This document shows, in pieces, positions 7,473 through 42,265 of a stretch of 64,000 nucleotides of DNA. How positions within the stretch are numbered: the stretch's first letter is position 1; every line of letters starts with the position of its first letter. The notes beneath the pieces were generated by a model that was given only the letters and a program-made list of their open reading frames with translations, searched no databases and was not told the DNA's origin. This DNA comes from Escherichia phage C6. Location: the sequence record MW679410.1, one strand, 5' to 3'. The position numbers and the translations under genes were made by a program.

Positions 7473-7511
7473 AATAATTTCCTCAGTTTTAAAGTTATAA
7501 TCCGTAGGACC

Positions 7512-7541
7512 ATTATACTCTGGTCCCAAGAGTTTGTAAAC
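7512..7541 (-). promoter_or_regulatory. T4 early-type sigma70 promoter (-35 GTTTAC, -10 TATAAT)
   Basis: Minus strand GTTTACAAACTCTTGGGACCAGAGTATAAT; 18-nt spacer. Confidence 0.55.
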
Positions 7542-8611: not shown

Positions 8612-8640
8612 AATGTTCTCCTCATGTGTTGATAGGATAG

Positions 8641-8669
8641 ACTATAACACGTGAGGAGAGGAAGTAAAC
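8641..8669 (-). promoter_or_regulatory. T4 early-type promoter with inverted repeat that can pair with the downstream SD
   Basis: Minus strand GTTTAC, 17-nt spacer, TATAGT; CTCCTCACGTGTT in spacer is complementary to AACACATGAGGAG at the SD. Confidence 0.5.
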
Positions 8670-13146: not shown

Positions 13147-13172
13147 GATATTCTCCTCAAGTTGATAGAAAG

Positions 13173-13202
13173 ATTATACTCCATCCATCCTTGGATGTAA
13201 AC
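13173..13202 (-). promoter_or_regulatory. T4 early-type promoter
   Basis: Minus strand GTTTAC, 18-nt spacer, TATAAT. Confidence 0.55.
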
Positions 13203-15725: not shown

Positions 15726-15751
15726 GATAACCTCCAGTAGTTGATAGGTCT

Positions 15752-15780
15752 ATAGTATCATTTCTGCCGGAGATGTAAAC
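15752..15780 (-). promoter_or_regulatory. T4 early-type promoter
   Basis: Minus strand GTTTAC, 17-nt spacer, TGATACTAT extended -10. Confidence 0.6.
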
Positions 15781-21161: not shown

Positions 21162-21188
21162 ACTGTTTTCCTCATTAGTTGATAGGTC

Positions 21189-21217
21189 TATAGTATCATG
21201 TTCCTAGAGGATGTAAA
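21189..21217 (-). promoter_or_regulatory. T4 early-type promoter
   Basis: Minus strand GTTTAC, 17-nt spacer, TGATACTAT; conserved GATAGGTCTATAGTATCATG block. Confidence 0.6.
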
Positions 21218-21259
21218 CACTAAAAATGAAAAAAGGTCCCACCGAAGTGAGACCTTTGA

Positions 21260-24622: not shown

Positions 24623-25081
24623 TTAAAGATAGATTACTTTAGTGCTTGTTTTACCTTCTAAACGTTTAGAGTTAACAAATGCCATACGGCATTTAAGGGA
24701 ATATCCTTTATCAGGATGTTTACGGTCTACTGTCATACCTAGCCATAAGGTTTTATCGGTAATTTCGAGACGCAATGGACGATACACTTTACCAGGGACA
24801 ATTTCAGATTCTACATCAGGCAGAGGTTCCTGGATTAAGAATTCATGGATTTCTTTAACATGGTTATGGAGTTGCTTGAATAAAGCAAAAACGTATTTTT
24901 CGTCGATTTCACGTTGGATAGCACGGTCCAACAAATGATTAGAGTACTTAATAAAGAAGGCTGGGACTCCGCTCTTAATGGCGGCTTTTTTGATGGACGC
25001 ATTCAGTTCACGGAATTCGGTTTCGAACTGACGACGTAATTTGTTGCGGCGGATGAATACTTCTGAATTAATTTCTGACAT
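24623..25081 (-). CDS. regB: RegB site-specific endoribonuclease
   Basis: 152 aa; strong match to recalled T4 RegB (EVFIRRNKLRR.FE.EFR...HLLDRAIQREIDE.YVF). Confidence 0.9.
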   Translation of the reverse strand: MSEINSEVFIRRNKLRRQFETEFRELNASIKKAAIKSGVPAFFIKYSNHLLDRAIQREIDEKYVFALFKQLHNHVKEIHEFLIQEPLPDVESEIVPGKVYRPLRLEITDKTLWLGMTVDRKHPDKGYSLKCRMAFVNSKRLEGKTSTKVIYL

Positions 25082-25109
25082 TTTGTAATCTCCTGTAGTT
25101 GATAGGTTT

Positions 25110-25138
25110 ATAGTATCATGTCTACAGGAGATGTAAAC
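25110..25138 (-). promoter_or_regulatory. T4 early-type promoter upstream of regB, with spacer/SD inverted repeat
   Basis: Minus strand GTTTAC, 17-nt spacer, TGATACTAT; 9-bp CTCCTGTAG in spacer is the perfect complement of CTACAGGAG at the regB SD. Confidence 0.6.
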
Positions 25139-27983: not shown

Positions 27984-28580
27984 TTAATTACCACGGGCCG
28001 CATTAGCAACGGCGTAAGCGTACTGGATATTAGCGTCTTTAAACGTACCTTTAGAGGTATCTAGTTCTGCCTTAAAGCCAGCTTTAGTCATAACATCAGC
28101 GAATTCTTTACGGAAAGCCATTGTATCAAGACCTTTCCATGTTGATTTGTGCTTGGCAAATTCAAGACCAGCGAAGTTGACAGCCTTAGCCAATTTATTA
28201 TCAATAGCCCATTTACCTGCTTTAGGTACAAATACCGGGCCTTTCTGTTTAGAGAACAGTTTTAAATTCCAGCGACGAAGGTCACCGTCGGCTTTAATAA
28301 AAGCTGCGTCCAAGTTACTAGCAACAACATCTTGGATATGGCCAAATTTAAGTCCATCAGCTTCAATATTTAGGTCGTTACGCCAGCGAAGTCCTTCCCA
28401 GGCGAAAGCTTTAAAGTCGGAAGCCTTTGTAGCTAAATACCGTTCAATAGGAGCTGTTTTAGCGTCAAAACCGTTTCCTGGGTTGTCAACGCCGTTTCCT
28501 CGGTAAGTCCACTCATCTTTATTAATGCCTTGGACCTTTCCTACAGAAGCTTCGGCGATAAATTCTTTATACGTTTTCAT
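27984..28580 (-). CDS. ipIII: Internal protein III
   Basis: 198 aa; CTS MKTYKEFIAEA; matches recalled T4 IPIII length and sequence blocks. Confidence 0.8.
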   Translation of the reverse strand: MKTYKEFIAEASVGKVQGINKDEWTYRGNGVDNPGNGFDAKTAPIERYLATKASDFKAFAWEGLRWRNDLNIEADGLKFGHIQDVVASNLDAAFIKADGDLRRWNLKLFSKQKGPVFVPKAGKWAIDNKLAKAVNFAGLEFAKHKSTWKGLDTMAFRKEFADVMTKAGFKAELDTSKGTFKDANIQYAYAVANAARGN

Positions 28581-28633
28581 ACGGGTTCCTTAAAGGTAAA
28601 TATTTTAATTGGTATGTTCAAGTAACTGTAGAT

Positions 28634-28662
28634 ATACTATCACAATTCTAGGAGATGTAAAC
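28634..28662 (-). promoter_or_regulatory. T4 early-type promoter upstream of ipIII
   Basis: Minus strand GTTTAC, 17-nt spacer, TAGTAT. Confidence 0.5.
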
Positions 28663-29572: not shown

Positions 29573-30022
29573 TCAAAAGAGCGAATCTAAAACCTTAAAC
29601 ATCGACGGGCCCATGACATATTCCCATTGTGGACGTTTAATCAAAGCGAATGCATCGAATTCAGGAATCGTGCGACCGTCAGGGAATGTATGGTAAGCTG
29701 TACATTTGCAATCCTTGAACTGCTCGTGTTCCACAGGCACAGTATATAAGAACAGGTGTAGATTCTTATTGCTTGAATATTTGAACTCACCTAGGTCTTT
29801 CAGGAACGCAGGGTCGTATGCTGTGAATCCAATCTCTTCTTCGGTTTCACGCATCGCCGCTTGAATAGGCTCTTCGCCTGGTTCTACATGACCTTTAGGG
29901 ATGTCCCATTTATGACGCATATTCTCTGGATTACGAGAGCCTGTTACACGGCCCATGACCAGTTCTTTATCAACGGTCATGAATAAAATACCTGCCGATA
30001 ATTCTTTCGCTTTCTTACTCAT
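29573..30022 (-). CDS. nudE: Nudix hydrolase NudE
   Basis: Start trimmed to MSKKAKE; Nudix box GHVEPGEEPIQAAMRETEEEIGF. Confidence 0.85.
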   Translation of the reverse strand: MSKKAKELSAGILFMTVDKELVMGRVTGSRNPENMRHKWDIPKGHVEPGEEPIQAAMRETEEEIGFTAYDPAFLKDLGEFKYSSNKNLHLFLYTVPVEHEQFKDCKCTAYHTFPDGRTIPEFDAFALIKRPQWEYVMGPSMFKVLDSLF

Positions 30023-30260
30023 CGTCTCGTTCCCATGATTGTTTAAAAATATCTCGTATAATAATTTCAACACACGTTTCTGTTGACGGACTTTCACTAT
30101 CAGATATTTGGACCATATAATCAGAAATAGGTCGGAACATATCCAAGTCGCTTTCTAAATCTTCTTTGATTTTCTCTTCTGATGTTCCGGTGTCATAGGA
30201 ATACAGATAAGAATCACATGACTCGGATTTAATATAAATTGCAATACTCATTTGCGGCAT
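30015..30260 (-). CDS. Hypothetical acidic protein (doubtful start)
   Basis: 81 aa; overlaps nudE start region. Confidence 0.3.
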   Translation of the reverse strand: MPQMSIAIYIKSESCDSYLYSYDTGTSEEKIKEDLESDLDMFRPISDYMVQISDSESPSTETCVEIIIRDIFKQSWERDDE

Positions 30261-30835
30261 TCCTCAATAAAGGAGTTCAATGTATTTTTCTTGGTGTTAT
30301 CATCATATACCTTTTTAACTTTAGAAATACGAAAAGGTACTTCGATAACCGAGGTCCATAAAAATGATGCAATAAGACCCGAGATAGCTGCAGACATCGC
30401 TGAAGCAAATACACAAATAGGCAGGTCATTATCTGTTGTCAGGAAAAACCAAAGGAGTGGAAAAAATAATATTCCCATCCAAACATAGAACCTAGAACTC
30501 ACTAATTTGTCATATTCGTCACTCCATGCACGAAAGCCGTATTTTTTGCTATAACAAATCAATGGGTCAGGTGTCTGTTCTTTGAGCGGTTCTGGTTGCC
30601 AACCGTTTACAATATAGCCCATTTTATATTCCTCAATTAAAAGCCGTTTCATTTCAGCAGTACAACCTGACCAATCTATCGTACTAGCTGGAATTCCTTC
30701 ATCACCATCATCAATATTTCGCCAGGACTTTTTAATAATCATATGCTCACCACTTGGGATAATAATTCCGGCATTTTCCGACCGACGGATGAAGTTTGTA
30801 TCAATGCCCATACACCCGGGTTCATAAAGGGCCAT
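30248..30835 (-). CDS. Membrane protein
   Basis: 195 aa; hydrophobic helices in C-terminal half. Confidence 0.5.
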   Translation of the reverse strand: MALYEPGCMGIDTNFIRRSENAGIIIPSGEHMIIKKSWRNIDDGDEGIPASTIDWSGCTAEMKRLLIEEYKMGYIVNGWQPEPLKEQTPDPLICYSKKYGFRAWSDEYDKLVSSRFYVWMGILFFPLLWFFLTTDNDLPICVFASAMSAAISGLIASFLWTSVIEVPFRISKVKKVYDDNTKKNTLNSFIEECRK

Positions 30836-31524
30836 TACCAGCCCTCCATAGGGAATTCCAGATATACTTGAGCATTAACACGGATTTCATTAGTAATCTT
30901 TTTAACACGGTCGGTATTACGAGACACACGACCAAACCAGCGCCAACCGTTACTTACTGCACGAGAACCCGTATGCCATGTCTGCCAATCAAACTGGAGC
31001 AACGTGCGGTCAGGAGCATCCCACTTGGTTAATTCATTAGACTCAATTTTTTCCAGAACTTCTTTATGCCACTGACGATAGATAAGTTCGCCTTCAGGAA
31101 TCTGGCTAAATTGCGCAGTTCCGGTTGCAAAATGGGTAGGACACACATCAGCGTTAACAAGACCAAGAATATGTTCAGAATGGTAACGAGGATTATCATA
31201 ATCAGGCTGCCCTGCGGTAATAAAGTGTTGACCGACCGGAATATCCGGGCGTGGTACATCATCATGGTGGAAGCCTGGAATTGCAGGGTACCAGCCGGGC
31301 ATTAACATGTGTACACGGGAATCAAATACAATATCAGGGCCACATTGCCAATCTTCAGGCAGGTTTTCAATAAAGCTACGAGTAATAGGACCGCCGTGTT
31401 TATGAGCAAAATAAGCATCGCAATTAAAGAACATAGGCTCATTTTTAATCATATCATTACTGATATCTTGAGCAAAATTACCTACTATAGAAGCTTTAGA
31501 ATTAAAAGTTTTTGGGCCATTCAT
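30835..31524 (-). CDS. Hypothetical protein
   Basis: 229 aa; His/Asp-rich motifs; no confident family assignment. Confidence 0.5.
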   Translation of the reverse strand: MNGPKTFNSKASIVGNFAQDISNDMIKNEPMFFNCDAYFAHKHGGPITRSFIENLPEDWQCGPDIVFDSRVHMLMPGWYPAIPGFHHDDVPRPDIPVGQHFITAGQPDYDNPRYHSEHILGLVNADVCPTHFATGTAQFSQIPEGELIYRQWHKEVLEKIESNELTKWDAPDRTLLQFDWQTWHTGSRAVSNGWRWFGRVSRNTDRVKKITNEIRVNAQVYLEFPMEGW

Positions 31525-31538
31525 AATATTTTCCTCAC

Positions 31539-31751
31539 TTACTTTTTGTTGAAAAAGTACATTTTACCTTTAGGGGATAAGGATACACGAAGTGCGTTAC
31601 CAATACCAACTGAACATTTAACCAGGTCAGCAGATTTCAATTCACCAAATGCTTGACGAAGGTCACCGTCACGAGTGTTAACCATCAGGCATTTAGCACC
31701 AGCTGCACGAACTTCGTTTAACATGTTGATTGCTTGGTTAGAAAGTTTCAT
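31539..31751 (-). CDS. Hypothetical protein (start trimmed to MKLSNQ)
   Basis: Track start lies upstream of the promoter; internal ATG with SD GGAGAA. Confidence 0.45.
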   Translation of the reverse strand: MKLSNQAINMLNEVRAAGAKCLMVNTRDGDLRQAFGELKSADLVKCSVGIGNALRVSLSPKGKMYFFNKK

Positions 31752-31788
31752 TTTATTCTCCGTTTCACTCTGTTGTTTTGATAGGTCT

Positions 31789-31817
31789 ATAGTATCATGC
31801 CTATAGACCTTGTAAAC
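31789..31817 (-). promoter_or_regulatory. T4 early-type promoter with 10-bp dyad
   Basis: Minus strand GTTTAC, 17-nt spacer, TACTAT; AGGTCTATAG...CTATAGACCT dyad; 45-bp block identical to the one near 40790. Confidence 0.6.
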
Positions 31818-31829
31818 AATTTTATGCAA

Positions 31830-32789
31830 TTATTTTTCGAAAGGACGAATTAAATGATGATTATCTTGGAAACGCTTGATGTAGTCGTTTTCACCTAAAG
31901 TCTTGTACATATTAACCACAGCTTGGTAGTTTTCCCAGGCATACTCGCGGAACCAACCTGAAGTGATTGAGGTACACACTTTCTCAAGGGCCATATAGAA
32001 ACTTAATGATGGTGAAATATTGAAGTCATTAGGAACCTGTGAACGTTCTAGTGCCAGGACACAAGTTTCTTCATACACACCAGCCAATTTAATAGCTTCA
32101 GGCAAAGCCTCGAACTTCTCACGAGAAGTCATGACTTCAGAACCTTCCTTCATATAAAAGGTATATGCAGGGCGTCCGGCCAATGCCACAGCTTCATGGA
32201 TAGAGTCATGGTCTAGGGTATAAATGGTGTCATTAAAGAACGATGATTTGTTTACATCTAATTTAGGATGAGAATAGCTCAACGTTTCTTTTTGACGTTG
32301 CAGCATAATTTCCTGGAGTTCTTCATTCAGGGTGATACCTTTATTACGAAGGTATTTGATGTGGGACATAGTTTTCAGGAAGAACGGATTATTCTTCAGG
32401 AAACGATGAGAGGTTTTGATAGCCAGACAGATATCAGGCGTAGCCCAATAGAAACCTGTAAGACGGTCCTTTTTAATATGATTTTCAGCATATTTCAGGA
32501 GACGATAACTTGAGGTGAAATCTTCGTCTTGGAGCTCACCAGTGATTTCACGTACGTTAGTCAGAGCACGAACGATATATGCTTCAAAATAGGTTTCTTT
32601 ACCGTTGTACATGCATTTAAAAGCCTGGACATCAGGGTTATCCACAGGAACATGGGCGCCGAACATCCGAGCTTTAAAGTGATTCCATGAGCCTTGGTCG
32701 GCAATGAAATCCCAATCAGAATTTTCGATATACTTATTTTCAATCAGACCAGCGTGGTGCAGTGCACGAGAACCAATAACTAGCATCAT
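31830..32789 (-). CDS. Hypothetical protein
   Basis: Start trimmed to MMLVIGS with SD GAGGAAA; 319 aa. Confidence 0.55.
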   Translation of the reverse strand: MMLVIGSRALHHAGLIENKYIENSDWDFIADQGSWNHFKARMFGAHVPVDNPDVQAFKCMYNGKETYFEAYIVRALTNVREITGELQDEDFTSSYRLLKYAENHIKKDRLTGFYWATPDICLAIKTSHRFLKNNPFFLKTMSHIKYLRNKGITLNEELQEIMLQRQKETLSYSHPKLDVNKSSFFNDTIYTLDHDSIHEAVALAGRPAYTFYMKEGSEVMTSREKFEALPEAIKLAGVYEETCVLALERSQVPNDFNISPSLSFYMALEKVCTSITSGWFREYAWENYQAVVNMYKTLGENDYIKRFQDNHHLIRPFEK

Positions 32790-32808
32790 AATATTTTCCT
32801 CAGTAAAC

Positions 32809-33048
32809 TTAAATTTCGGCAACGTAAGTGTTATGCAATTCCCACATATCATTGGAATTACTCTCAACGATAGGAATTATCTCATTAGAAATTTCTTCTG
32901 CATAAGGGTCATTGATACAGTGAGCATCTTCAAAACGAACACCGTAATCAGACTTCTTATAAGCAAAGCCATAAATCTTTTTAAACTTGGCACGAGTAAT
33001 GCGTACTGGTTCATTAGACTTATCGGACATCGGAGCGTAATACCACAT
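32809..33048 (-). CDS. Hypothetical protein
   Basis: 79 aa. Confidence 0.45.
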   Translation of the reverse strand: MWYYAPMSDKSNEPVRITRAKFKKIYGFAYKKSDYGVRFEDAHCINDPYAEEISNEIIPIVESNSNDMWELHNTYVAEI

Positions 33049-33091
33049 ATGTTCTCCTCATGTTTGTGTAGGGTAATAGTAACACGTATTT

Positions 33092-33421
33092 TTAGAGTTG
33101 TACATCACTTCTGCAATATTCTAAAAATAATTTATCGTTGTCTACCGTATCCCAACGACGCCAAGATGGATTCCAGACCAAAGCGTTGTCACCACAATCA
33201 TTGAGCTTAAAATGGTCGTAGTACATAGCTATACGTCTAGTTTCGTCACCAGAGAACCCCAGTATAGGCTCGCCATGGGTGTGATACATATGATGGTGCA
33301 TTGAGAGGTCGCATTTGTAAAACATCTCACGTTTACCACGAACGAACAAGAAAGCTTGCCCATTCATATAGAATTCTTTATCTGTTTTCAAAAGATATTT
33401 GAATACTGAATCTTTATGCAT
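33092..33421 (-). CDS. Hypothetical His-rich protein (start trimmed)
   Basis: Track ORF 33092..33442; internal Met MHKDS chosen. Confidence 0.4.
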   Translation of the reverse strand: MHKDSVFKYLLKTDKEFYMNGQAFLFVRGKREMFYKCDLSMHHHMYHTHGEPILGFSGDETRRIAMYYDHFKLNDCGDNALVWNPSWRRWDTVDNDKLFLEYCRSDVQL

Positions 33422-33451
33422 AAATCCTCCTACCACATCCATGTGGTTAAA

Positions 33452-33679
33452 TTATTTTCCTAACGAAACACGAGTAGGTTTTTTACCAAAATAGTCTTCA
33501 TAAGAACCATCTAAACGGCCTGCTTTAGACCGACAATACGAATCATACTTTTTGTAATAAGTCATCTCGGTATTATAACGTGGGTGTCTATCGGCCATAA
33601 TAATACTTAGTGGCCAACCTTTGGCATAATCGCGAAGACTGTTTATTTTACGAATGTATCGTTTTTTCAATTTTAGCAT
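33452..33679 (-). CDS. Hypothetical basic protein
   Basis: 75 aa. Confidence 0.4.
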   Translation of the reverse strand: MLKLKKRYIRKINSLRDYAKGWPLSIIMADRHPRYNTEMTYYKKYDSYCRSKAGRLDGSYEDYFGKKPTRVSLGK

Positions 33680-33897
33680 GAGCTTGGGTACCAGATTTCA
33701 CCATCGGCACGAGCAACGAAGGTACGACCAGCTTCTTCACCATAACAAGAGCTGTTCAGCCAATCTTCGAGACGAACTTCGCCGTCATAATCGTCGAGCT
33801 CAACACCAAAATCCTGAGCAGAAGCCATATCTTTTACTTTCTTATACAGTGCAGCCAGTTCAAGTGCCGCTTTTTCTAATTCATTAATAGTAGTCAT
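33673..33897 (-). CDS. C-terminal W-x-S-S-C-tail family, member A
   Basis: Start trimmed to MTTINELEK (SD AAGGTGA); ends GEIWYPSSC-stop. Confidence 0.5.
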   Translation of the reverse strand: MTTINELEKAALELAALYKKVKDMASAQDFGVELDDYDGEVRLEDWLNSSCYGEEAGRTFVARADGEIWYPSSC

Positions 33898-33907
33898 TTT
33901 TATCACC

Positions 33908-34117
33908 TTAGCAAGACATAGAGGATGTAAACCAGAAACCTTCACCTTCTGGAATACCGTAATCATCACGGACCCATTCGTAATCATCATATTCCGGACT
34001 AGAAGCTGGAATATATTCTTCGCCACCAGCGTGGAAGTGCTGACCTGTTTCGTCAGCCACGGACTGGCCTTTACGTACTAATTCGCGGATTTGTTTTTCA
34101 ATTTCATCAATAGTCAT
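33908..34117 (-). CDS. C-terminal W-x-S-S-C-tail family, member B
   Basis: Start trimmed to MTIDEIEK (SD AAGGAAA); ends GFWFTSSMSC-stop. Confidence 0.5.
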   Translation of the reverse strand: MTIDEIEKQIRELVRKGQSVADETGQHFHAGGEEYIPASSPEYDDYEWVRDDYGIPEGEGFWFTSSMSC

Positions 34118-34127
34118 TTTTATTTCC

Positions 34128-34325
34128 TTAGCATTCGTAAGAGGAGGACACCCAAGAGGTACCACTAATAGTAATACAACCGTTATAAAGCGTGATATGT
34201 CGTTCTAGGTCACGAACACCATCGATATAGATATCAGCTTCTTCGCGTTCTTCTTTACAAATCTGGATAACGTTTTCAATAGCTGCCGCGGCAGTACGGA
34301 TTGCACAATCTAGTTCACGAGACAT
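34128..34325 (-). CDS. C-terminal W-x-S-S-C-tail family, member C
   Basis: 65 aa; SD AAGGAA; ends TSWVSSSYEC-stop. Confidence 0.5.
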   Translation of the reverse strand: MSRELDCAIRTAAAAIENVIQICKEEREEADIYIDGVRDLERHITLYNGCITISGTSWVSSSYEC

Positions 34326-34334
34326 AATAATTCC

Positions 34335-34616
34335 TTAACATTCAGAAGAAGAGGATACCCATCCACCATTTTCTAGGCTGGTAGTGTAATCATGTTGGTT
34401 TACAATAGCGTACTGAGCTTCACCGTATTCTTCCCAGTGGGCAAGGTCGGCTTTCAGGGCGCCAGGAGAATAATAGTCACCGCCCATACCGCGAGCAGGG
34501 TATATATTAAAATGAGTCTCATATTTGTTAGCAATTTCCTCAGCACGACGAATAGCTTTATGGATATCATTTACTGCTTCAGCCAGTTCTTTATTTTTAC
34601 GGTAATCATTCATCAT
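34335..34616 (-). CDS. C-terminal W-x-S-S-C-tail family, member D
   Basis: 93 aa; SD AAGGAAA; ends GGWVSSSSEC-stop. Confidence 0.55.
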   Translation of the reverse strand: MMNDYRKNKELAEAVNDIHKAIRRAEEIANKYETHFNIYPARGMGGDYYSPGALKADLAHWEEYGEAQYAIVNQHDYTTSLENGGWVSSSSEC

Positions 34617-34625
34617 AGCGTTTCC

Positions 34626-34916
34626 TTAGCACATTGCTGAAGAGGAGACCCAAGCACCAACTGTAACGACGCCGTTTTCAACTTCACCGCCGTTGTTTTC
34701 AATTTCATCTTTAAACCACTGGGAGCATTCATAACCGACAGGATAATATGTACGGCCTGAACCATAATCACCGGTACCGAATTGGATACCATACTTATCG
34801 GCAATAGCTTCACATTCATGTTCGATGGTATTCACTTTACGCAACAGGTCATAGATGGCTTTTTCTGCAGATTTTTCGTCGTTGTGTTCTGGGATTTCAA
34901 TTTCAATTTTATTCAT
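34626..34916 (-). CDS. C-terminal W-x-S-S-C-tail family, member E
   Basis: 96 aa; SD AGGAA; ends GAWVSSSAMC-stop. Confidence 0.55.
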   Translation of the reverse strand: MNKIEIEIPEHNDEKSAEKAIYDLLRKVNTIEHECEAIADKYGIQFGTGDYGSGRTYYPVGYECSQWFKDEIENNGGEVENGVVTVGAWVSSSAMC

Positions 34917-35266
34917 GATTTACATTCCTTAATAAAGATTTCAAGGTCATTACGTTTAGTTTGATTTACATACTCATTATAATTAGCCATCTCTAAAGCA
35001 TATCTCTTACGGATGGGAGCATTCAAAGCGTTTGTATGGCAAATATCATACACAACAGGGATAAAATAAGCCACGACAGCAGGAGCGATTATCATATAGA
35101 AACCCATCTCAATAGGCATGACTCCTTCGATTGCCGCCATAACCGTGGTCATTACCAGACCAACCAGACCTCCTAGCATACCGGTGACAATTCCCATAAA
35201 TAAGGAAATAGCAATATCATATTCAGCCAATTGATAAACATGTGATGAAAGACTAGGCCGTTCCAT
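34913..35266 (-). CDS. Small membrane protein (start trimmed to MERPS)
   Basis: 117 aa; two hydrophobic helices; stop overlaps ATG of family member E. Confidence 0.45.
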   Translation of the reverse strand: MERPSLSSHVYQLAEYDIAISLFMGIVTGMLGGLVGLVMTTVMAAIEGVMPIEMGFYMIIAPAVVAYFIPVVYDICHTNALNAPIRKRYALEMANYNEYVNQTKRNDLEIFIKECKS

Positions 35267-35795
35267 TTTGAACCTCTTTAGCGTATTCGCGACATTCAGC
35301 AATAAAACGATTAAGCTTCCGTTGTTGTTTTCGAATCTCTGATGTATACTCATTAGCCAAAATAATAAGCTCATCTTTATCGTAATTTTTAATATCCGAA
35401 TAACTCGGGCGGCGGTCGACCATACCAAAGTGGTCACCATTTTCTAACATCAAATAGCATACTAAATGGTAATCATCGTCAGCATCAACAAGCTGTTTAC
35501 AATCACTTGGTTCATTTAAAGCGTATACTGAATAGCATAATCCAGAGAATTCCACTCGTTGAATACCCAGATTTAAGTCAATAATTTCTAAAGCTTCTGC
35601 AAAAGAAAGGTCCTCAGCTAAAGCAAAGATAAAAGGTAATTTGCTAGTGTATCCACGGCTATTTGTTCGACTTAAGAAATCATTGGAATAACCTAAGTCT
35701 TGGCGAATTCTATAAAGAACTGAATTAGTTTCATGTGAAAGACCACTATGCTTAAACCAATCAATATTTGATATCAGGTCATCATATAAACTCAT
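35253..35795 (-). CDS. Hypothetical protein
   Basis: 180 aa ATG ORF. Confidence 0.55.
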   Translation of the reverse strand: MSLYDDLISNIDWFKHSGLSHETNSVLYRIRQDLGYSNDFLSRTNSRGYTSKLPFIFALAEDLSFAEALEIIDLNLGIQRVEFSGLCYSVYALNEPSDCKQLVDADDDYHLVCYLMLENGDHFGMVDRRPSYSDIKNYDKDELIILANEYTSEIRKQQRKLNRFIAECREYAKEVQNGTA

Positions 35796-35843
35796 AATAT
35801 TCTCCTCTCCTCCAAATAGGGAGACCGAAGTCTCCCGGTAACA

Positions 35844-36437
35844 TTACTTAAGTGAATTAATGTAGTCGTCGATATCAGCAGAAGTCGTATCCATTCCAAC
35901 TTGTGGGCCTTTAAATGTTTCTACACGCAGCAGGGTATCTTCAATATCAATCTTAGTCAATGCAGCGATTTCAACAACATCATCGGCAGTAGCAATACCA
36001 AGGGCAGCCATATTACGAGTTTCACGGATGTACTCGAGCTTAACGGCTAGTTCCTGACGAGAGTCATCAAGTTCCTTGACCTTCAGTTTAATTTCATTAC
36101 GCATTTCGATATAATCATCGGCTTTCTTACGAAGCTGAGTAGCTGTACGACGATAAAGGAGACCGAGTTTAGCATGTACCTGGACATCAGCGCCTTCGGC
36201 AATCAGTTTACGAATTTCACGTTCTTTAGAAGCAGCGAGCTGGTCTTTTTCATTAGCCAACGCACGAATACGTTTTTCTTCATTCACAGACTTAACATGA
36301 GCAGTCTGGAGTTCAGTGATTTTATCAATCAGGGTAGAAGCAGCTTTAGTATACTGGTCTTCGATTGACAGGTTCTGAGTCATTGCGGTGCCCAGTTTAG
36401 AACGAATGAATTCAACGAGTTTCTTTAAAGTGTTCAT
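35844..36437 (-). CDS. Coiled-coil protein (PspA-like character, tentative)
   Basis: 197 aa; heptad-rich helical sequence; SD AAGGAAA. Confidence 0.5.
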
Positions 36438-36479
36438 AGTATTTCCTTCAGTTGATTAAGATTTATAATCCATGAGGAC

Positions 36480-36509
36480 ATTATACCCTGTCCTCTGAGG
36501 GTTGTAAAC
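36480..36509 (-). promoter_or_regulatory. T4 early-type promoter
   Basis: Minus strand GTTTAC, 18-nt spacer, TATAAT; GAGGACA...TGTCCTC dyad around the -10. Confidence 0.55.
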
Positions 36510-36512
36510 ATT

Positions 36513-36785
36513 TTATTTCATTTTTGCTAGGCAGATTTCATTGGCTTCCCATTGAGCTTGCTTAATAATAGCTTTGGATACAGGAGCCCTTTGGCCATAA
36601 GTTTTTGACGTTGAGAGAACAATACATTTGTTTGCTTCATTATGCCAGCCCCATGATTTTTCGCCATGGGTACCTTTAACTACAGCTGACACCTCAACAG
36701 AGCAACCACCATCAGAAATCTTGGTTTCGACAATCCATTCATTTCTCTCGGCTGCTTCAAGTTCTAATCTAGTTTTTTTCTTCAT
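36513..36785 (-). CDS. Hypothetical protein
   Basis: 90 aa. Confidence 0.5.
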   Translation of the reverse strand: MKKKTRLELEAAERNEWIVETKISDGGCSVEVSAVVKGTHGEKSWGWHNEANKCIVLSTSKTYGQRAPVSKAIIKQAQWEANEICLAKMK

Positions 36786-36969
36786 ACATGGCAGCCCAAT
36801 CAGTTTTTGCCAAGTTGAAAGTAAGAGCTTTCTCTAATTCTTTGGCAGCTTTTTGTTGTTCAGGTGTTAATGAATTATACAACTCTTGCATTTCTTTATC
36901 TTCGATATTCATTATGTTCTCCTCAAATTACGGGCTCATAATATCTTAATCATGAGCCCATGTAAACTT

Positions 36970-37233
36970 TTATTTCATATTATTGAAATAATCTTCCGCA
37001 TCAAAATCGTTATCATGATAAACTTTGGTAGACGATTTGGCGTAACCTTCAGCTGAGAACATATTAATCACAACTTTAATTGTATACCACTGTCCATCTT
37101 CATTACCCATTACTGCATAGGTTTCATACACTGGGTGTTCAGGACCGATAACCTTAATATCGTTAACTGTGGCACCAAATTCTTCCGGAACGCATTTCAT
37201 AAAGAAATTAAACAATTCACCATAATTATCCAT
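36970..37233 (-). CDS. Hypothetical protein (start trimmed to MDNYGELF)
   Basis: Track start is GTG; internal ATG with SD AAGGAGA. Confidence 0.5.
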   Translation of the reverse strand: MDNYGELFNFFMKCVPEEFGATVNDIKVIGPEHPVYETYAVMGNEDGQWYTIKVVINMFSAEGYAKSSTKVYHDNDFDAEDYFNNMK

Positions 37234-37268
37234 TTTACTCTCCTTCACTCTGTTGTTTTGATAGGTCT

Positions 37269-37297
37269 ATAGTATCATGTTTAAAGTAGGTGTAAAC
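37269..37297 (-). promoter_or_regulatory. T4 early-type promoter
   Basis: Minus strand GTTTAC, 17-nt spacer, TGATACTAT. Confidence 0.6.
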
Positions 37298-37356
37298 AAC
37301 TTTGTGAAATTATTTTTAGTCTAAACCCCCAAAAAGGAGACCGAAGTCTCCTTTCA

Positions 37357-37974
37357 TTATTTACGGGTCTTTTCGAACTGAGCGGCGTCACCAGCAAGGC
37401 GGCGTGCTTGACGAAGTTTGTTGTCGATTTCTTCGTGCATAGGCTGGGTATACTTAAGGCCTTCAACCGTCAGATAGAGACGATAAAGGTCTGGGGTATC
37501 CAGGTTGTTAATGTGCTGTCCGTTACGAAGAGCATTGAACTCTCGAACGAGTTGTTTAGTTTCAGATTCGATTTCCGAAACCAAAGAAGCCAGTTGATTA
37601 TATTTTTTAACTATAGTGCTGGTGTCAAACTTGATTTTAGGTTTAGGAGCTTCTTTTACCGGTTCGGCTTTAGGCGTTGGTTTCGGCGCTGCAACTTTGG
37701 TCTGGGCCACAGGTTTAGCAACAGGAGCTTTAGCTGGTTTAGCAGGCTTAGTAGCGCCGCCAGCTACGATATCTTTAAAAGCTTTGGAAGCTTTGTAATA
37801 TTCTTTCTGGTTACTAGTATCAAAACCATACATATCATAAACGTTTTTAAAGAACTCAGTACTAGTTTTAGCCCCAGAAATTTTATCATAAGCGGCTTGC
37901 CACATATCTTTAGTCATGCGCACGCCGGCTTCAGTCAGAATGTTTTCGTTCAAAAATTCATTGTAAGTTTTCAT
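37357..37974 (-). CDS. CTS-bearing internal-protein-like protein with Pro/Ala/Lys-rich linker
   Basis: 205 aa; N-terminus MKTYNEFLNEN; low-complexity KPAKPAKAPVAKPVAQTKVAAPKPTPKAEPVKEAPKPK segment. Confidence 0.6.
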   Translation of the reverse strand: MKTYNEFLNENILTEAGVRMTKDMWQAAYDKISGAKTSTEFFKNVYDMYGFDTSNQKEYYKASKAFKDIVAGGATKPAKPAKAPVAKPVAQTKVAAPKPTPKAEPVKEAPKPKIKFDTSTIVKKYNQLASLVSEIESETKQLVREFNALRNGQHINNLDTPDLYRLYLTVEGLKYTQPMHEEIDNKLRQARRLAGDAAQFEKTRK

Positions 37975-38007
37975 TATTGTTTCCTGTGTTAATTAACTTA
38001 TCTATTT

Positions 38008-38040
38008 ATACAAAAAAGGCCCAACCTTTCGGAAGGGCCT
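38008..38040 (-). terminator. Rho-independent terminator ending the tRNA transcript
   Basis: Minus strand AAAGGCCC-loop-GGGCCTTTTTTG. Confidence 0.55.
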
Positions 38041-38217
38041 TTAACCTAGGGTAACCTTGTCGGGGTTCCACCTGCTAGGCAAGTGTTCAAAAATAAGGTG
38101 CGCCGTTTCAGCTGTGAGATAAGGGACTTTAAGAGGAACTCATGTACGCCTTAAAGTCGGGTCTTATTCAGGGAACTTCAGTCCGACGACTTACCGGTAG
38201 CGACCCGGTTTCTTGTT
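38041..38217 (-). ncRNA. Candidate structured small RNA downstream of tRNA-Arg
   Basis: About 175 nt without a protein ORF; several stem-loops (e.g. GACTTTAAG...CTTAAAGTC); no tRNA cloverleaf found. Confidence 0.25.
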
Positions 38218-38293
38218 TGGCCGAGACAGTAGGGATCGAACCTACGACCCAGGACTTAGAAGGTCCTTGCTCTTCCTTCTGAGCTATGCCTCG
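38218..38293 (-). tRNA. tRNA-Arg (anticodon UCU)
   Basis: Manual cloverleaf: 7-bp acceptor, GGTTCGATCC T-arm, anticodon loop CTTCTAA, encoded CCA. Confidence 0.75.
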
Positions 38294-38297
38294 TATT

Positions 38298-38372
38298 TGG
38301 CGGACATGCATGGATTCGAACCATGGACCAATTGATTAACAGTCAACTGCTCTGCCACTGAGCTACACATCC
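38298..38372 (-). tRNA. tRNA-Asn (anticodon GUU), putative
   Basis: Manual cloverleaf: T-loop TTCGAAT, anticodon loop CTGTTAA, encoded CCA; acceptor has two G-U pairs. Confidence 0.55.
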
Positions 38373-38376
38373 AAAT

Positions 38377-38450
38377 TGGTGGCCCTGGGTGGAATCGAAC
38401 CACCATCCAGCGATTATGAGTCGCTCGCTTGACCGTCCAGCTACAGGGCC
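38377..38450 (-). tRNA. tRNA-Ile/Met (anticodon CAU)
   Basis: Manual cloverleaf: perfect 7-bp acceptor, T-loop TTCGATT, anticodon loop CTCATAA, encoded CCA; T4 tRNA-Ile also uses CAU. Confidence 0.75.
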
Positions 38451-38455
38451 TTAAT

Positions 38456-38728
38456 TTAAATTACAAATCCAGCAGGAGCATTATCATCTTTAGCCATGTG
38501 CTGAATTGTATGATAAGTCATTTCTTCAGGAGCAACCAGATAAGCCGCAGCGTTAACTAGTGGAATTATTTTTGGTTTAGCGAATGTGCTATCGGCAATT
38601 GTCATAAAGGGCTCGCCGTCGGTCTCAACTTCGCCAAATTGACATTCATATGAAATAGAACAACGTTTGGTAGTTGTTGTCTTGGTTTCCGGGTCATAAA
38701 AAGCTAATTTTAATACTAACATAAACAC
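38456..38728 (-). CDS. Hypothetical protein
   Basis: 90 aa. Confidence 0.45.
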   Translation of the reverse strand: MFMLVLKLAFYDPETKTTTTKRCSISYECQFGEVETDGEPFMTIADSTFAKPKIIPLVNAAAYLVAPEEMTYHTIQHMAKDDNAPAGFVI

Positions 38729-38852
38729 CTCAAATAAAAATTAAGTAAAGTAAGTTTGATTAATAGACCTTGTCTATTATGAAAGGTTCTTTGAGGGAAG
38801 AACCTTTGGTAATAGAGGGTATTAATGATAGAGTAATAATATCACATAATTC

Positions 38853-39338
38853 TTAAAGCATATCAAGTGCTTTAACACTAGGTATTTGGATTTCTTCTTC
38901 AACGATGTACAGCTTAACATAAGAAATTACGCGCATGAAATCGCCGTCATATTCACAAGCCATACCAAGGAGCTCAGTAAGGGCTTCATTCAAGTAGTAT
39001 GCTTCTTCATCGTCATTCAACAAGGCTTCTAAGTCTTGAATACCTAGGACCTTATCCAAAAATTCAGGAGTCAACTGACCGGATTTTACACCAGATTCAA
39101 TGTGAGCAATAACCAAATGCTTAACTACGTCCCAGTCTTCGTTACCACATTTATTGTGGTTGTTGCAATGCGAACCATGGAAAAGTTCTAAGATGTATTT
39201 GTACTGTTGGATTTCCTGTTCTTCTACACCAAATACAGTCTGGGTTTTATAGTTATCACCATCATTTTCCCAAGTTTCGATTTCAAGAACATAACCTTTA
39301 GGAATAACTTGTCCAAATTTAATATTCATTGTGGCCAC
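38853..39338 (-). CDS. Hypothetical acidic protein
   Basis: 161 aa ATG ORF. Confidence 0.55.
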   Translation of the reverse strand: MATMNIKFGQVIPKGYVLEIETWENDGDNYKTQTVFGVEEQEIQQYKYILELFHGSHCNNHNKCGNEDWDVVKHLVIAHIESGVKSGQLTPEFLDKVLGIQDLEALLNDDEEAYYLNEALTELLGMACEYDGDFMRVISYVKLYIVEEEIQIPSVKALDML

Positions 39339-39616
39339 ATATTAATGTAATCAAGTTTAATAGAAGCAATCTTCAAAGGATTTTTAAATATGTCATATTC
39401 GACCAATCCGTTTTCAGTTGCGGTATAAAAAGTAAAGTTAACAGAATTATAACGATGGCTGTTAACTTTGAGTTTAACATCACTTGAACTACGGCCAATA
39501 TTAACCTGTTGAACATCAAGCACAGCATCTTTGCCGTAATTTCGAATCAACAACTCGGCTGCAACCTGATCGGATTTATAGCCATTCTCTGGATTAGTAA
39601 CCTTAACGTATAGCAT
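39326..39616 (-). CDS. Hypothetical protein
   Basis: 96 aa. Confidence 0.5.
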   Translation of the reverse strand: MLYVKVTNPENGYKSDQVAAELLIRNYGKDAVLDVQQVNIGRSSSDVKLKVNSHRYNSVNFTFYTATENGLVEYDIFKNPLKIASIKLDYINMWPQ

Positions 39617-39997
39617 TTAACCCTCGTCTACAATTGTGTGGGTATTGGCATTAACAATTTGCCACCAGTCAAAACGATTAGACCCATATTGAGGCTTATT
39701 CTCGTTTTCTTTAATGATATCACGTAGTTCATCTTCAGTAGCAGCTTTTGCGATTAAGTCGGCATAGCCGCCACGAGGATAATAGTTATCACCTGCGAAA
39801 AGTAAAAAGTTTGTTTTGATATTATTGAACTCTTCAAGAGTAATAACCGTTCCGTTTGGTTGAACAATATCTATATAACTATATCCTAATTTCTGAGCTT
39901 CGGAAACCGCTTCAAGCAGGGTATCATGGGCCCATCCAATTTGACAATCGGGTTTTTCGGATGGATTAGCTTGGTAGTCCGCATACACTTTATACAT
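39617..39997 (-). CDS. Hypothetical protein (start trimmed to MYKVYADY)
   Basis: Track ORF 39617..40045; internal Met avoids overlap with upstream gene. Confidence 0.45.
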   Translation of the reverse strand: MYKVYADYQANPSEKPDCQIGWAHDTLLEAVSEAQKLGYSYIDIVQPNGTVITLEEFNNIKTNFLLFAGDNYYPRGGYADLIAKAATEDELRDIIKENENKPQYGSNRFDWWQIVNANTHTIVDEG

Positions 39998-39998
39998 T

Positions 39999-40184
39999 TT
40001 ACTCACCTTTAGAGATTTTATCCATAACAAAAGAGATTGAACCAATTAAAAATGCCACTACTAAAGAGATTATATTCTCGGAAGTTGAAAGCATATCGAG
40101 CATGAATCCTGCAAACATACTAAAGCCAAAAGCAGTAACGGCGGCCAGTGCAGTAACATTTCTAATTAATTCACAACGTTTCAT
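39999..40184 (-). CDS. Small membrane protein (start trimmed to MKRCE)
   Basis: SD GGAGAA; two hydrophobic helices. Confidence 0.45.
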   Translation of the reverse strand: MKRCELIRNVTALAAVTAFGFSMFAGFMLDMLSTSENIISLVVAFLIGSISFVMDKISKGE

Positions 40185-40220
40185 TTTATTCTCCAATCAC
40201 TCATTTGTTTTGATAGGGCT

Positions 40221-40250
40221 ATAGTACCATCACTAGAGCCCGTTGTAAAC
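40221..40250 (-). promoter_or_regulatory. T4 early-type promoter with covarying dyad
   Basis: Minus strand GTTTAC, 18-nt spacer, TACTAT; dyad GGGCTCTAGT/ACTATAGCCC in the same position as the AGGTCTATAG dyads. Confidence 0.5.
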
Positions 40251-40252
40251 AA

Positions 40253-40525
40253 TTATTTTAAATAAATTGCATACTTTTTATAACCAGCCGTTTCGTGACG
40301 CAGCCCTTTTTCATTAGCAAAACGTTCAATATTGTTAATTTGATTCCGGTCAAGCTCTGAAGTATCAAAAACAAAAAAATTTCGCTTATTGCCTAAAGTT
40401 ACGTGATTAGTCAAATCAATGTTATAGAGATGATTTATATCATCAATCATAGTCTTAACAGATTTGTTAATTTTTACTTCCTCATTAAGAATAGATTCAG
40501 AGATAAATTCTTGATAAGTTTTCAT
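40253..40525 (-). CDS. CTS-bearing internal-protein-like protein (ipI-locus position)
   Basis: 90 aa; N-terminus MKTYQEFISES. Confidence 0.6.
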   Translation of the reverse strand: MKTYQEFISESILNEEVKINKSVKTMIDDINHLYNIDLTNHVTLGNKRNFFVFDTSELDRNQINNIERFANEKGLRHETAGYKKYAIYLK

Positions 40526-40526
40526 T

Positions 40527-40752
40527 TTATTCTACGCCAGCGGCTTTCAAAAGTTTTTTAAGATTGGCCGTGCCTTGAGCAGAAAATGTGACCTTGCCGT
40601 CTTTTTCGCCGATACTCCCGGTCAATTTAGCAAGTTTATCACTAGGGATTTTTTTAAAATCAGCCAATGTACCGTCAAAGGTTTTTGTAACAACTGGCAG
40701 TTGGTCTTCGTGTTTTTTTAGCTTCGGTAATAAATTCTTGATAAGTTTTCAT
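40527..40752 (-). pseudogene. Frameshifted CTS-bearing gene (A7/T7 homopolymer)
   Basis: ATG-MKTYQEFITEAKK then stop after 25 codons; removing one base of the 7-nt homopolymer near 40713-40719 restores a 74-aa ORF ending at 40527; no intact ORF in the track. Confidence 0.5.
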
Positions 40753-40789
40753 TTTGATTTCCGTTTGGTTAGTTTGTTTTGATAGGTCT

Positions 40790-40818
40790 ATAGTATCATG
40801 CCTATAGACCTTGTAAAC
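40790..40818 (-). promoter_or_regulatory. T4 early-type promoter with 10-bp dyad
   Basis: Identical 45-bp block to the one at 31777-31820. Confidence 0.6.
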
Positions 40819-40825
40819 AACTTTT

Positions 40826-41503
<678 letters not shown>

Positions 41504-41511
<8 letters not shown>

Positions 41512-42265
41512 TTTTATTTCCTAATAATTTATCAATAGTAGTGTATAGTTCAGAAAGAGTGCCGTTATTTTCAACAACAACGTCACCAGGTAAAATTGGT
41601 AGACCCGCTTCAGTGATGTGCGAGTCTTGTACTTGACCGGTTTCAGAGCGAACCACATGAATAATCGTAGCACCCATCGCTCTGAGCGAATCAATTTCGT
41701 GTGTTTGACGAACATCAGGTACGACATAGTATTTCGCATCAGAGTATATTTTATCAAAATAGTCTAAAGCGAACAACTTAACCCAATACATCTTATCAAA
41801 TTGGTTAACAATAATATCAGTCCCAAGGGTCTGCATGAGACGACGTACTGACCAATTGTTATTTTTATTTATTACTTCAAACAGTTGGTCTTTTGTTTCT
41901 TCAGACAGATACTGGACTGGGGTAAGACCATAATGATATGCGGTACGAACATCCATTCCTGGAATAGGAAGGATATTATTCAGTTTGACAATAGCATTTT
42001 CAAAGATATCAATCACATCATATGGTTTTAAAGGAAGGATTTCTTCACGGTCGTAACCTATACCTTCAAAACAGTTAAAATCGAGTTTAGGCATATAACT
42101 ACGGTCGAATACAGGGTCATCAGAGATGTATTCATAAGCTTCAGCCAGATACTTTTTAATAGGACCTGCGAGCTGAAATTTTACCGAATCCATATTTTCG
42201 ATTACATAGTTAGCAACGGTATCCTTACCGCTACGTTTGATTCCTACAATTGATATTAGTTTCAT
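41504..42265 (-). CDS. 1: Deoxynucleoside monophosphate kinase, gene 1
   Basis: 253 aa; P-loop GIKRSGKDT; blocks matching recalled T4 gp1 (WSVRRLMQ.LGTD.IVN.FD.MYWVKLFALDY, ATIIHVVR). Confidence 0.9.

Follow-up and report, generated by a model that had tools for sequence, protein, structure and literature searches.

Covarying dyads in T4-type early promoters of Escherichia phage C6 and their possible role as hairpins of read-through RNA

Why should an early promoter of a T4-like phage carry a dyad across its spacer and -10 region, with arms that differ between copies and still match each other? The question is raised by Escherichia phage C6, in which a stretch of 64,000 nucleotides (nt; sequence record MW679410.1, hereafter the window) contains three minus-strand copies of an early promoter cassette, at 31773-31819, 40774-40820 and 40216-40249 (copies 1, 2 and 3). 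A previous inspection of the letters without database searches (the sequence-only reading) had treated the dyad as a peculiarity of these three copies. Our analysis revealed it instead as a general feature of the early promoters of T4 and its relatives, in which the spacer is complementary to a downstream segment of the same promoter. The reading we favour is that the dyad forms an RNA hairpin in transcripts that enter the promoter from upstream.

Comparison with known genomes placed the cassettes in a familiar setting. Positions 30000-42000 of the window shared 92-95% DNA identity with the Dhakavirus phages IME281, JS10, JS98 and IME08, which identifies its source as a T4-like Dhakavirus (Straboviridae). 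The counterpart in the JS10 annotation runs nrdC - tk - regB - denV - ipIII - e - transfer RNA (tRNA) - 57B/57A/1/3/2/4 and then into baseplate genes; T4-type genomes classically have their hyperplastic early region here, and its genes lie on the minus strand. The 20-mer GATAGGTCTATAGTATCATG, read on the plus strand, was found at 31780-31799 and 40781-40800, and at three mismatches or fewer it had eight copies in the window (starting at 15743, 17144, 21181, 25101, 31780, 37260, 40212 and 40781), compared with none in 100 shuffles. All eight copies are T4-type early promoters of the minus strand, each made up of an A-rich stretch followed by (T)GTTTACA, a spacer of 16-17 nt that ends in TGa or TGg, TACTAT and AGACCTATCAA, with a Shine-Dalgarno (SD) sequence and ATG 25-40 nt downstream of the block. 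On these sequence features we assign the repeated block as an early promoter of the host sigma-70 type, GTTTACA / 16-17 nt / TGnTACTAT / AGACCTATCAA.

T4-type early promoters have been described as an UP element, a -35 GTTTAC, a TGn and a -10 together with extra conserved positions (PMC2988021; logos in PMC1524935). The cassettes have the same elements, spacing and start region (A/T-rich upstream element, GTTTACA, TGn, TAnnAT and CTATCAA as the conserved letters), and they stand ahead of orthologues of T4 early genes (trna.4, regB and internal-protein genes). All three copies contain TTGTTTACA, N16-17, TGa or TGg and TACTAT with an A-rich stretch upstream, and are correctly oriented ahead of the trna.4 orthologue, an internal-protein-like gene and a small open reading frame (ORF). 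The regB orthologue (promoter 25137) and ORFs of the vs-denV-ip region are likewise preceded by sister promoters. The sequence-only reading was right in calling these blocks promoters with the extended -10 TGATACTAT; its claim that most minus-strand early promoters share the block was correct as to recurrence but too generous in number, as 8 of about 18 candidates, nearer half, carry it.

The identity between copies 1 and 2, previously put at roughly 45 base pairs (bp), extends over exactly 47 bp. In copy 1, which a consensus scan scored as promoter-like with TG, the -35 TTTACA lies at 31811-31816 and the -10 TACTAT at 31789-31794, after TGa; the start is placed at about 31782, and the promoter would drive an ORF of 70 amino acids (aa) with its ATG at 31751. 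Its dyad (31783-31810) consists of the 5' arm AGGTCTATAG at 31801-31810 and the 3' arm CTATAGACCT at 31783-31792. In copy 2 the -35 is at 40812-40817, the -10 at 40790-40795 and the arms at 40802-40811 and 40784-40793; this promoter drives an internal-protein-like ORF (MKTYQEFITE...). The 10-bp dyad proposed for both copies is perfect and encloses an 8-nt loop. With the start taken 7 nt past the -10, the arms occupy positions -28 to -19 in the spacer and -10 to -1 in the -10 and discriminator. Folded as RNA, this dyad had an energy of -15.4 kcal/mol (z = -5.4), a value matched by 0 of 200 shuffles. Copy 3, the promoter of the trna.4 orthologue, has its -35 at 40244-40249 and its -10 at 40221-40226, separated by a 17-nt spacer; because this spacer is 17 and not 16 nt long, the stem is displaced by one position. 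Its arms, GGGCTCTAGTG (40231-40241) and TACTATAGCCC (40216-40226), form 5 bp, a 1x1 mismatch and a further 5 bp around a 4-nt loop (-12.9 kcal/mol, z = -2.6). When spacers were shuffled, the p values were about 0.001, 0.0005 and 0.016 for copies 1, 2 and 3, respectively. The compensatory changes that had been read into copy 3 amount to one true pair (T:A to G:C), while one position is left unpaired. The three copies lie 13, 8 and 3 nt past the upstream stop codon, which for copy 2 is that of a 57B-like ORF.

To measure how far the complementarity exceeds chance, each spacer was paired with the -10-to-ATG segment of the same promoter, and the best duplex was scored against those of shuffled spacers. 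Promoters were collected with the pattern TTTAC, N16-17, TA[ACT]N[AT]T plus an SD sequence and start codon; because this pattern misses some promoters (e.g. 8668, with TATAGT) and admits some false ones, the fractions with a dyad are approximate. In the window, 10 of 17 distinct promoters reached p <= 0.05 compared with 0.85 expected (Fisher combined 1.7e-12). A scan of IMG/VR with the pattern GTTTACA, N16-17, TACTAT, NNNN, CTATCAA yielded 111 loci covering about 1 Mb of T4-like DNA, and these were pooled with T4, JS10 and the window to give 327 promoter candidates (265 unique), which fell into 100 families at 80% identity. When each family was represented by a single promoter, 31 were significant at p <= 0.05 and 21 at p <= 0.01 (expected 5 and 1), while 6.6% of random -10-like decoy sites had a dyad. 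The mean duplex energy was -6.43 kcal/mol for cognate pairs and -4.04 kcal/mol for spacers paired with segments of other families (z = -11.5); pairing is far stronger between cognate partners, and composition and the shared conserved block are therefore excluded as an explanation. Chance was likewise rejected as the origin by the spacer shuffles, the cross-pairing and the decoys together. T4 promoter candidates matching the same pattern carry the same dyads. In the ipII promoter (T4 65798) the -10 sits in the loop of a perfect 14-bp stem, TCCTAGAATTGTGA / TCACAATTCTAGGA; the ipI promoter has TGATGAGGTA / TACCTCATCA, and in the promoters of denV, regB, nrdC.8 and dexA the spacer is paired with the SD sequence.

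The arms of these dyads covary. Many unrelated arm sequences occupy the same promoter positions, and one and the same backbone can carry arms that differ and are nevertheless matched. The 3' arms (discriminators) AGACCT, AGCCCT, AACCC, AGCCTT, AGCACT and TACCCT occur with the 5' arms (spacers) AGGTCT, AGGGCT, GGGTT, AAGGCT, AGTGCT and AGGGTA, respectively; TACCTCATCA occurs with TGATGAGGTA, and GAGCCC and GAGCCT with GGGCTC and AGGCTC. On the backbone AACTCTTG......AGAG TATAAT, the discriminators GGTCCT, GCTCCT and GCTCTC are matched by the spacers GGGACC, GGGAGC and GAGAGC. In a register-matched alignment of 13 sequences with one common stem register, 94.4% of cells were paired, compared with 26-50% when the partners were slid; both sides change in 3 of 11 pairs, and the covariation score was reached by 0 of 500 shuffles. 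Covariation was thin on the three copies alone and is strong once relatives are included, which supports selection on pairing and not on sequence.

Two types of dyad were distinguished by the position of the 3' arm; the 5' arm lay in the spacer, upstream of the deduced start site, in all cases. In type A the 3' arm covers the -10 and discriminator and ends near -1 (about 20 of the 31 significant families, copies 1 to 3 among them), and in type B it covers the SD sequence (about 11 of 31). Accessibility of the SD..AUG segment was calculated as the mean unpaired probability from partition-function folding. For type B it was 0.29 in read-through RNA compared with 0.61 in the promoter's own transcript, and for type A 0.61 compared with 0.64. 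As accessibility falls only in type B read-through RNA, type B is predicted to mask the ribosome-binding site (RBS) and type A is not; masking of the RBS by the three flagged copies was rejected on these type A values. The sister promoters 25137, 8668, 15779 and 21217 have a 3' strand that covers the SD sequence. Promoters without a significant dyad also had lower SD accessibility in read-through RNA (0.48, compared with 0.62 in their own transcripts; P = 3.5e-9, with no length-matched control), which may be a trivial effect of length or a weak, widespread masking. Where the spacer of a type A stem is 17 nt long, the extended -10 (gTGa) often supplies a 4-nt loop, GUGA, of the GNRA type; the whole of TACTAT then belongs to the 3' arm and is paired, through G.U, with (A/G)T(A/G)GTA of the spacer.

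Strand and upstream context were then used to distinguish an element of RNA from one of DNA. Of 35 significant promoters, 25 folded more stably on the sense than on the antisense strand and 8 less stably (Wilcoxon P = 0.019). G.U pairs numbered 28 on the sense (messenger RNA) strand and 12 on the antisense strand (P = 0.017), where base composition predicts equal numbers. Of the 23 families that follow a canonical intrinsic terminator, 2 had a dyad, compared with 29 of the 77 that do not (Fisher P = 0.009); these upstream terminators were mostly UUCG-loop hairpins with a U run. The median distance from the upstream stop codon to the -35 was 5 nt for dyad promoters and 33 nt for others (P = 0.03), and the upstream ORF was co-oriented in 31 of 31 dyad promoters. 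Among the structural roles offered by the sequence-only reading, these data best fit a hairpin of read-through RNA, given the G.U bias, the depletion behind terminators and the SD-masking sister promoters. They do not fit a cruciform, as loop length varies between 3 and more than 20 nt and G.T pairs occur in the stems, or a dimeric sequence-specific binding site, as the half-sites are not conserved between promoters. Termination at the dyads, also suggested there, is contradicted by the lack of a U tract after the stem on either strand. An intrinsic terminator was rejected on further grounds: a consensus scan of both strands gave no terminator-like site at the dyads, where the stem is followed by AUCAAAACAA. 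An Rfam scan of 14000-43000 at gathering score returned three tRNAs only, and no family at the dyads.

Complementarity beyond chance, covarying arms, a strand bias, a link to upstream context and the layout of the promoter itself are all shown by these data. From them we infer that the dyad acts in vivo as an RNA hairpin specific to read-through transcripts, a reading whose probability we put at about 0.55. The promoter positions that polymerase leaves free (the spacer, and the discriminator or 5' leader) would have been written so that the spacer complements downstream sequence. Because the 5' arm precedes the promoter's own start site, the hairpin would form only in read-through RNA initiated upstream. 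A type A stem in the flagged copies would span the -10 region and end at about -1, 3-13 nt past the upstream stop codon, as an intercistronic stem-loop that might mark or protect the 3' side of the upstream message or insulate the two cistrons. It might thereby replace the terminator hairpin of other cassettes, placed within the free positions of the promoter where room is short. This stabiliser or insulator role is the likeliest one for type A, though even granting the read-through hairpin we hold it less probable than not. In type B, pairing between spacer and SD sequence would leave the read-through RNA poorly translatable, and the gene would be expressed from its own promoter; as the embedded promoter is early, translation would be tied to that promoter's own short-lived activity.

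A more general extension of the read-through hairpin is tentative. T4-like early promoters might be dual-coded, such that bases unread by polymerase encode a hairpin present in read-through RNA only. The promoter could then conceivably act as a switch between its own and the upstream-derived transcript, a general and undescribed layer of temporal control in the T4 family, though we are inclined to doubt it. On the same uncertain footing, type B would gate translation so that expression is immediate-early only, and type A would act on the 3' side of the upstream message while transcription continues.

By analogy, the dyads appear to be a variation on two known T4 designs, promoter-early stem-loop (PeSL) cassettes and translational control by a promoter within a hairpin. 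PeSL cassettes have been described in RB49/phi1, PST/T4 and nt-1/KVP40, where they are repeated in hyperplastic regions (PMC2839356, PMC4122927), and T-even internal-protein loci contain AT-rich stem-loops of variable size, according to what these two papers cite from Repoila 1994. The cassettes of the window resemble PeSL in that an early promoter is repeated in a hyperplastic region beside variable small genes, with two identical 47-bp copies, one of them ahead of an internal-protein gene unlike that of JS10. They differ in that the PeSL stem-loop lies just upstream of the promoter and is an effective terminator (PMC2839356, PMC4122927), whereas the stem described here lies inside the promoter, lacks a U tract and is under-represented behind upstream terminators. 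Recombination, which PeSL cassettes mediate through mini-circles and indels, is hinted at here only indirectly, by the different internal-protein gene that JS10 has behind the same cassette. Neither the covariation nor the two targets of the 3' arm are found in the PeSL papers (PMC2839356, PMC4122927). The reviews and the five-genome comparison of T4-type early promoters give consensus letters only, with no early-promoter hairpin, stem-loop, dyad, palindrome or inverted repeat (PMC2988021, PMC1524935); older primary papers may differ. Literature searches for maps of T4 transcript ends and for dyads in early promoters found nothing relevant. In T4 e, soc, 49 and I-TevI, the 5' strand of a helix lies upstream of an internal promoter and the RBS of the longer transcripts is masked (PMC3014915). 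The likeness is that the 5' strand precedes the internal start, so that only RNA initiated upstream can fold, and type B dyads, here and in T4 regB, denV, dexA and nrdC.8, mask the SD sequence in the same manner. However, the promoters embedded in e, soc, 49 and I-TevI are late (or middle) and delay expression, while those described here are early and would restrict expression to their own transcripts; the flagged type A copies, unlike those genes, do not mask the RBS.

Intrinsic terminators and intercistronic stabiliser hairpins without a U tract are both part of general bacterial and phage mRNA biology. The dyads resemble them as stable stems a few nucleotides past a stop codon, and at a given junction dyad and canonical terminator exclude each other; the lack of a U tract distinguishes them from an intrinsic terminator.

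Several observations weigh against the read-through hairpin. The stems are mostly Watson-Crick, and RNA and DNA are for this reason both possible in principle as the level of action; the strand bias is moderate, with p about 0.02. As terminators are themselves inverted repeats, their exclusivity with the dyads is also compatible with a limit of one DNA palindrome to each cassette. Where transcription starts and how much of it reads through are deduced, as is the stabiliser or insulator role of type A, which neither masks the RBS nor resembles a terminator. A significant dyad is absent from about two thirds of promoter families, which makes it an optional feature, and pairing is broken in some orthologues, such as L090:4017, which has AGGTCT opposite AGCCCT and looks recombinant. 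Promoter 28661 (28580-28661, minus strand), ahead of a 198-aa internal-protein-like gene, retains in its spacer TCTCCTAGAATTGTGA, the 5' arm of the T4 ipII stem; the matching 3' arm is gone (P = 0.29), and the dyad looks decayed or recombinant.

The Watson-Crick stems and the exclusivity with terminators would suit an inverted repeat that acts in DNA, either duplex or transiently single-stranded. It might be an extruded or structure-specific target, for instance a recombination hot-spot as proposed for PeSL, or a modulator of promoter melting. That antisense RNA folds nearly as well (29 compared with 31 families significant) is consistent with this, and so is the repetition of the cassettes in a hyperplastic region, where copy 2 is followed by different genes in this phage and in JS10, a difference that matches the shuffling ascribed to PeSL and internal-protein-locus repeats (PMC2839356, PMC4122927). 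We consider an element of this kind unlikely. The sense strand is favoured for G.U pairs, stems of 6-14 bp with G.T pairs and such variable loops are poor cruciform formers, and type B dyads end exactly on the SD sequence, which has meaning in RNA only; an open complex would in addition melt only the 3' arm, which would make a hairpin impossible there. The repeats might alternatively be a neutral by-product of quasi-palindrome template switching, which Ripley reportedly established in T4, combined with gene conversion between promoter copies and no selection. Identical 47-bp copies 9 kb apart and a large family of near-identical -10/+1 blocks do indicate concerted evolution. However, template switching gives perfect complements and not a sense-biased G.U excess, it predicts neither the depletion behind terminators nor the closely abutting upstream ORF nor 3' arms on the SD sequence, and decoy sites lack a comparable excess; we regard a neutral origin as improbable.

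Two further explanations invoke the other strand or a protein. A hairpin in plus-strand RNA, which might stop or stabilise antisense transcripts entering the early region, would be as stable (-16.2 and -14.8 kcal/mol), and on that strand the stem is followed by a T-rich stretch, the complement of the A-rich upstream element. This stretch begins 9-10 nt past the stem and was not terminator-like in the consensus scan, the G.U pairs favour the messenger RNA strand of the minus-strand genes, and the arms follow the promoter and SD sequence of those genes, so that we see only a slim chance for a role on this strand. The overlap of the dyad with spacer and -10 also recalls an operator for a dimeric sequence-specific protein, such as a factor for early-transcription shut-off, and the mechanism by which T4 early promoters are shut off is unknown (PMC2988021). 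Such an operator is very improbable here. The arms are unrelated between promoters while their complementarity is kept, arm position and loop length vary, and two thirds of early promoters have no dyad; a shared dimeric operator was rejected for lack of a conserved half-site among promoters.

If the read-through hairpin is real, the same 45 bp would act as a strong promoter at the DNA level and as a regulatory stem-loop at the RNA level, which would account for the conservation of T4-like early promoters well beyond polymerase contacts. Tightly packed early genes could be insulated without space being spent on terminators, and the dyads would offer a mutable handle on which T4 genes are expressed from their own early promoter only and which also from longer transcripts. 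The PeSL picture would be refined in that the T-even-like stem-loop often lies within the promoter. Annotators and phage engineers would have reason for caution, since changes in a spacer may alter the RNA behaviour of neighbouring genes.

The other early promoters of the window, all on the minus strand, illustrate both types. Among type A promoters, that at 36931-36966 has arms unrelated to those of the flagged copies, with TGGGCTCATGAT (36949-36960) pairing with ATTATGAGCCCG (36931-36942) around a -10 of TATTAT (P = 0.0005); as RNA its dyad (GGGCTCAT / ATGAGCCC) had an energy of -19.7 kcal/mol (z -6.3). The promoter at 36470-36508 has GAGGACA / TGTCCTC around the -10 TATAAT (P = 0.014), and that at 7501-7540 has TCTTGGGACCA / TGGTCCTACGGA (GGGACC / GGTCCT), also around TATAAT (P = 0.012), with relatives on the same backbone that carry GGGAGC/GCTCCT and GAGAGC/GCTCTC. 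A type B promoter is that at 25089-25137, in which the spacer TCTCCTGTAG pairs with CTACAGGAGA, the SD sequence of the downstream regB-like gene (P = 0.0005; -18.9 kcal/mol as RNA, z -5.9); this gene is a 152-aa ORF with its ATG at 25081, and its JS10 counterpart is regB. At 8617-8668 (TTTACT, 16 nt, TATAGT), the spacer TCTCCTCACGTGTT (8646-8659) pairs with the SD region AACACATGAGGAGA (8617-8630; P = 0.0005). A weaker type B dyad at 15731-15779 pairs the spacer TCTCCGGCAG with CTACTGGAGG via G.U pairs (P = 0.043) and has a perfect form, TCTCCAGTAG/CTACTGGAG, in relatives. An imperfect dyad was found at 13158-13201, formed by the spacer with the discriminator and start region (P = 0.013).

True upstream terminators were identified at only two places in the window, and both have a PeSL-type layout. 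At 21169-21254, a UUCG-loop intrinsic terminator (21235-21254, minus strand) followed by TTTTTT stands ahead of promoter 21217, which has a weak spacer/SD dyad, TCCTC/GAGGA (P = 0.022). At 37269-37354, a UUCG-loop terminator hairpin with a U run (37333-37354, minus strand) stands ahead of promoter 37296, which has the same -10/+1 block and no dyad (P = 0.57).

The gene behind copy 2 (40527-40752, minus strand) begins with the internal-protein leader MKTYQEFITE and reaches a stop after 25 aa. The remainder of a protein of about 75 aa (KKHEDQLPVVTKTF...AAGVE) lies in the +1 frame past an A7 run at 40714-40720, and the break could be either a homopolymer sequencing error or a real frameshift or pseudogene. 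In JS10 (28100-28440) the same cassette precedes a different, unannotated internal-protein-like ORF (MKTYQEFIKESTDLYS...) from that at 40527-40820 of the window, a difference that suggests a cassette swap with the conserved promoter and leader as its boundaries, of the sort described for T-even internal-protein loci. Finally, a further inverted repeat was observed at 38773-38816, with 19-nt arms that are 89% complementary and a 6-nt loop (TCTATTATGAAAGGTTCTT / AAGAACCTTTGGTAATAGA), upstream of the tRNA cluster at 38221-38450 on the minus strand.

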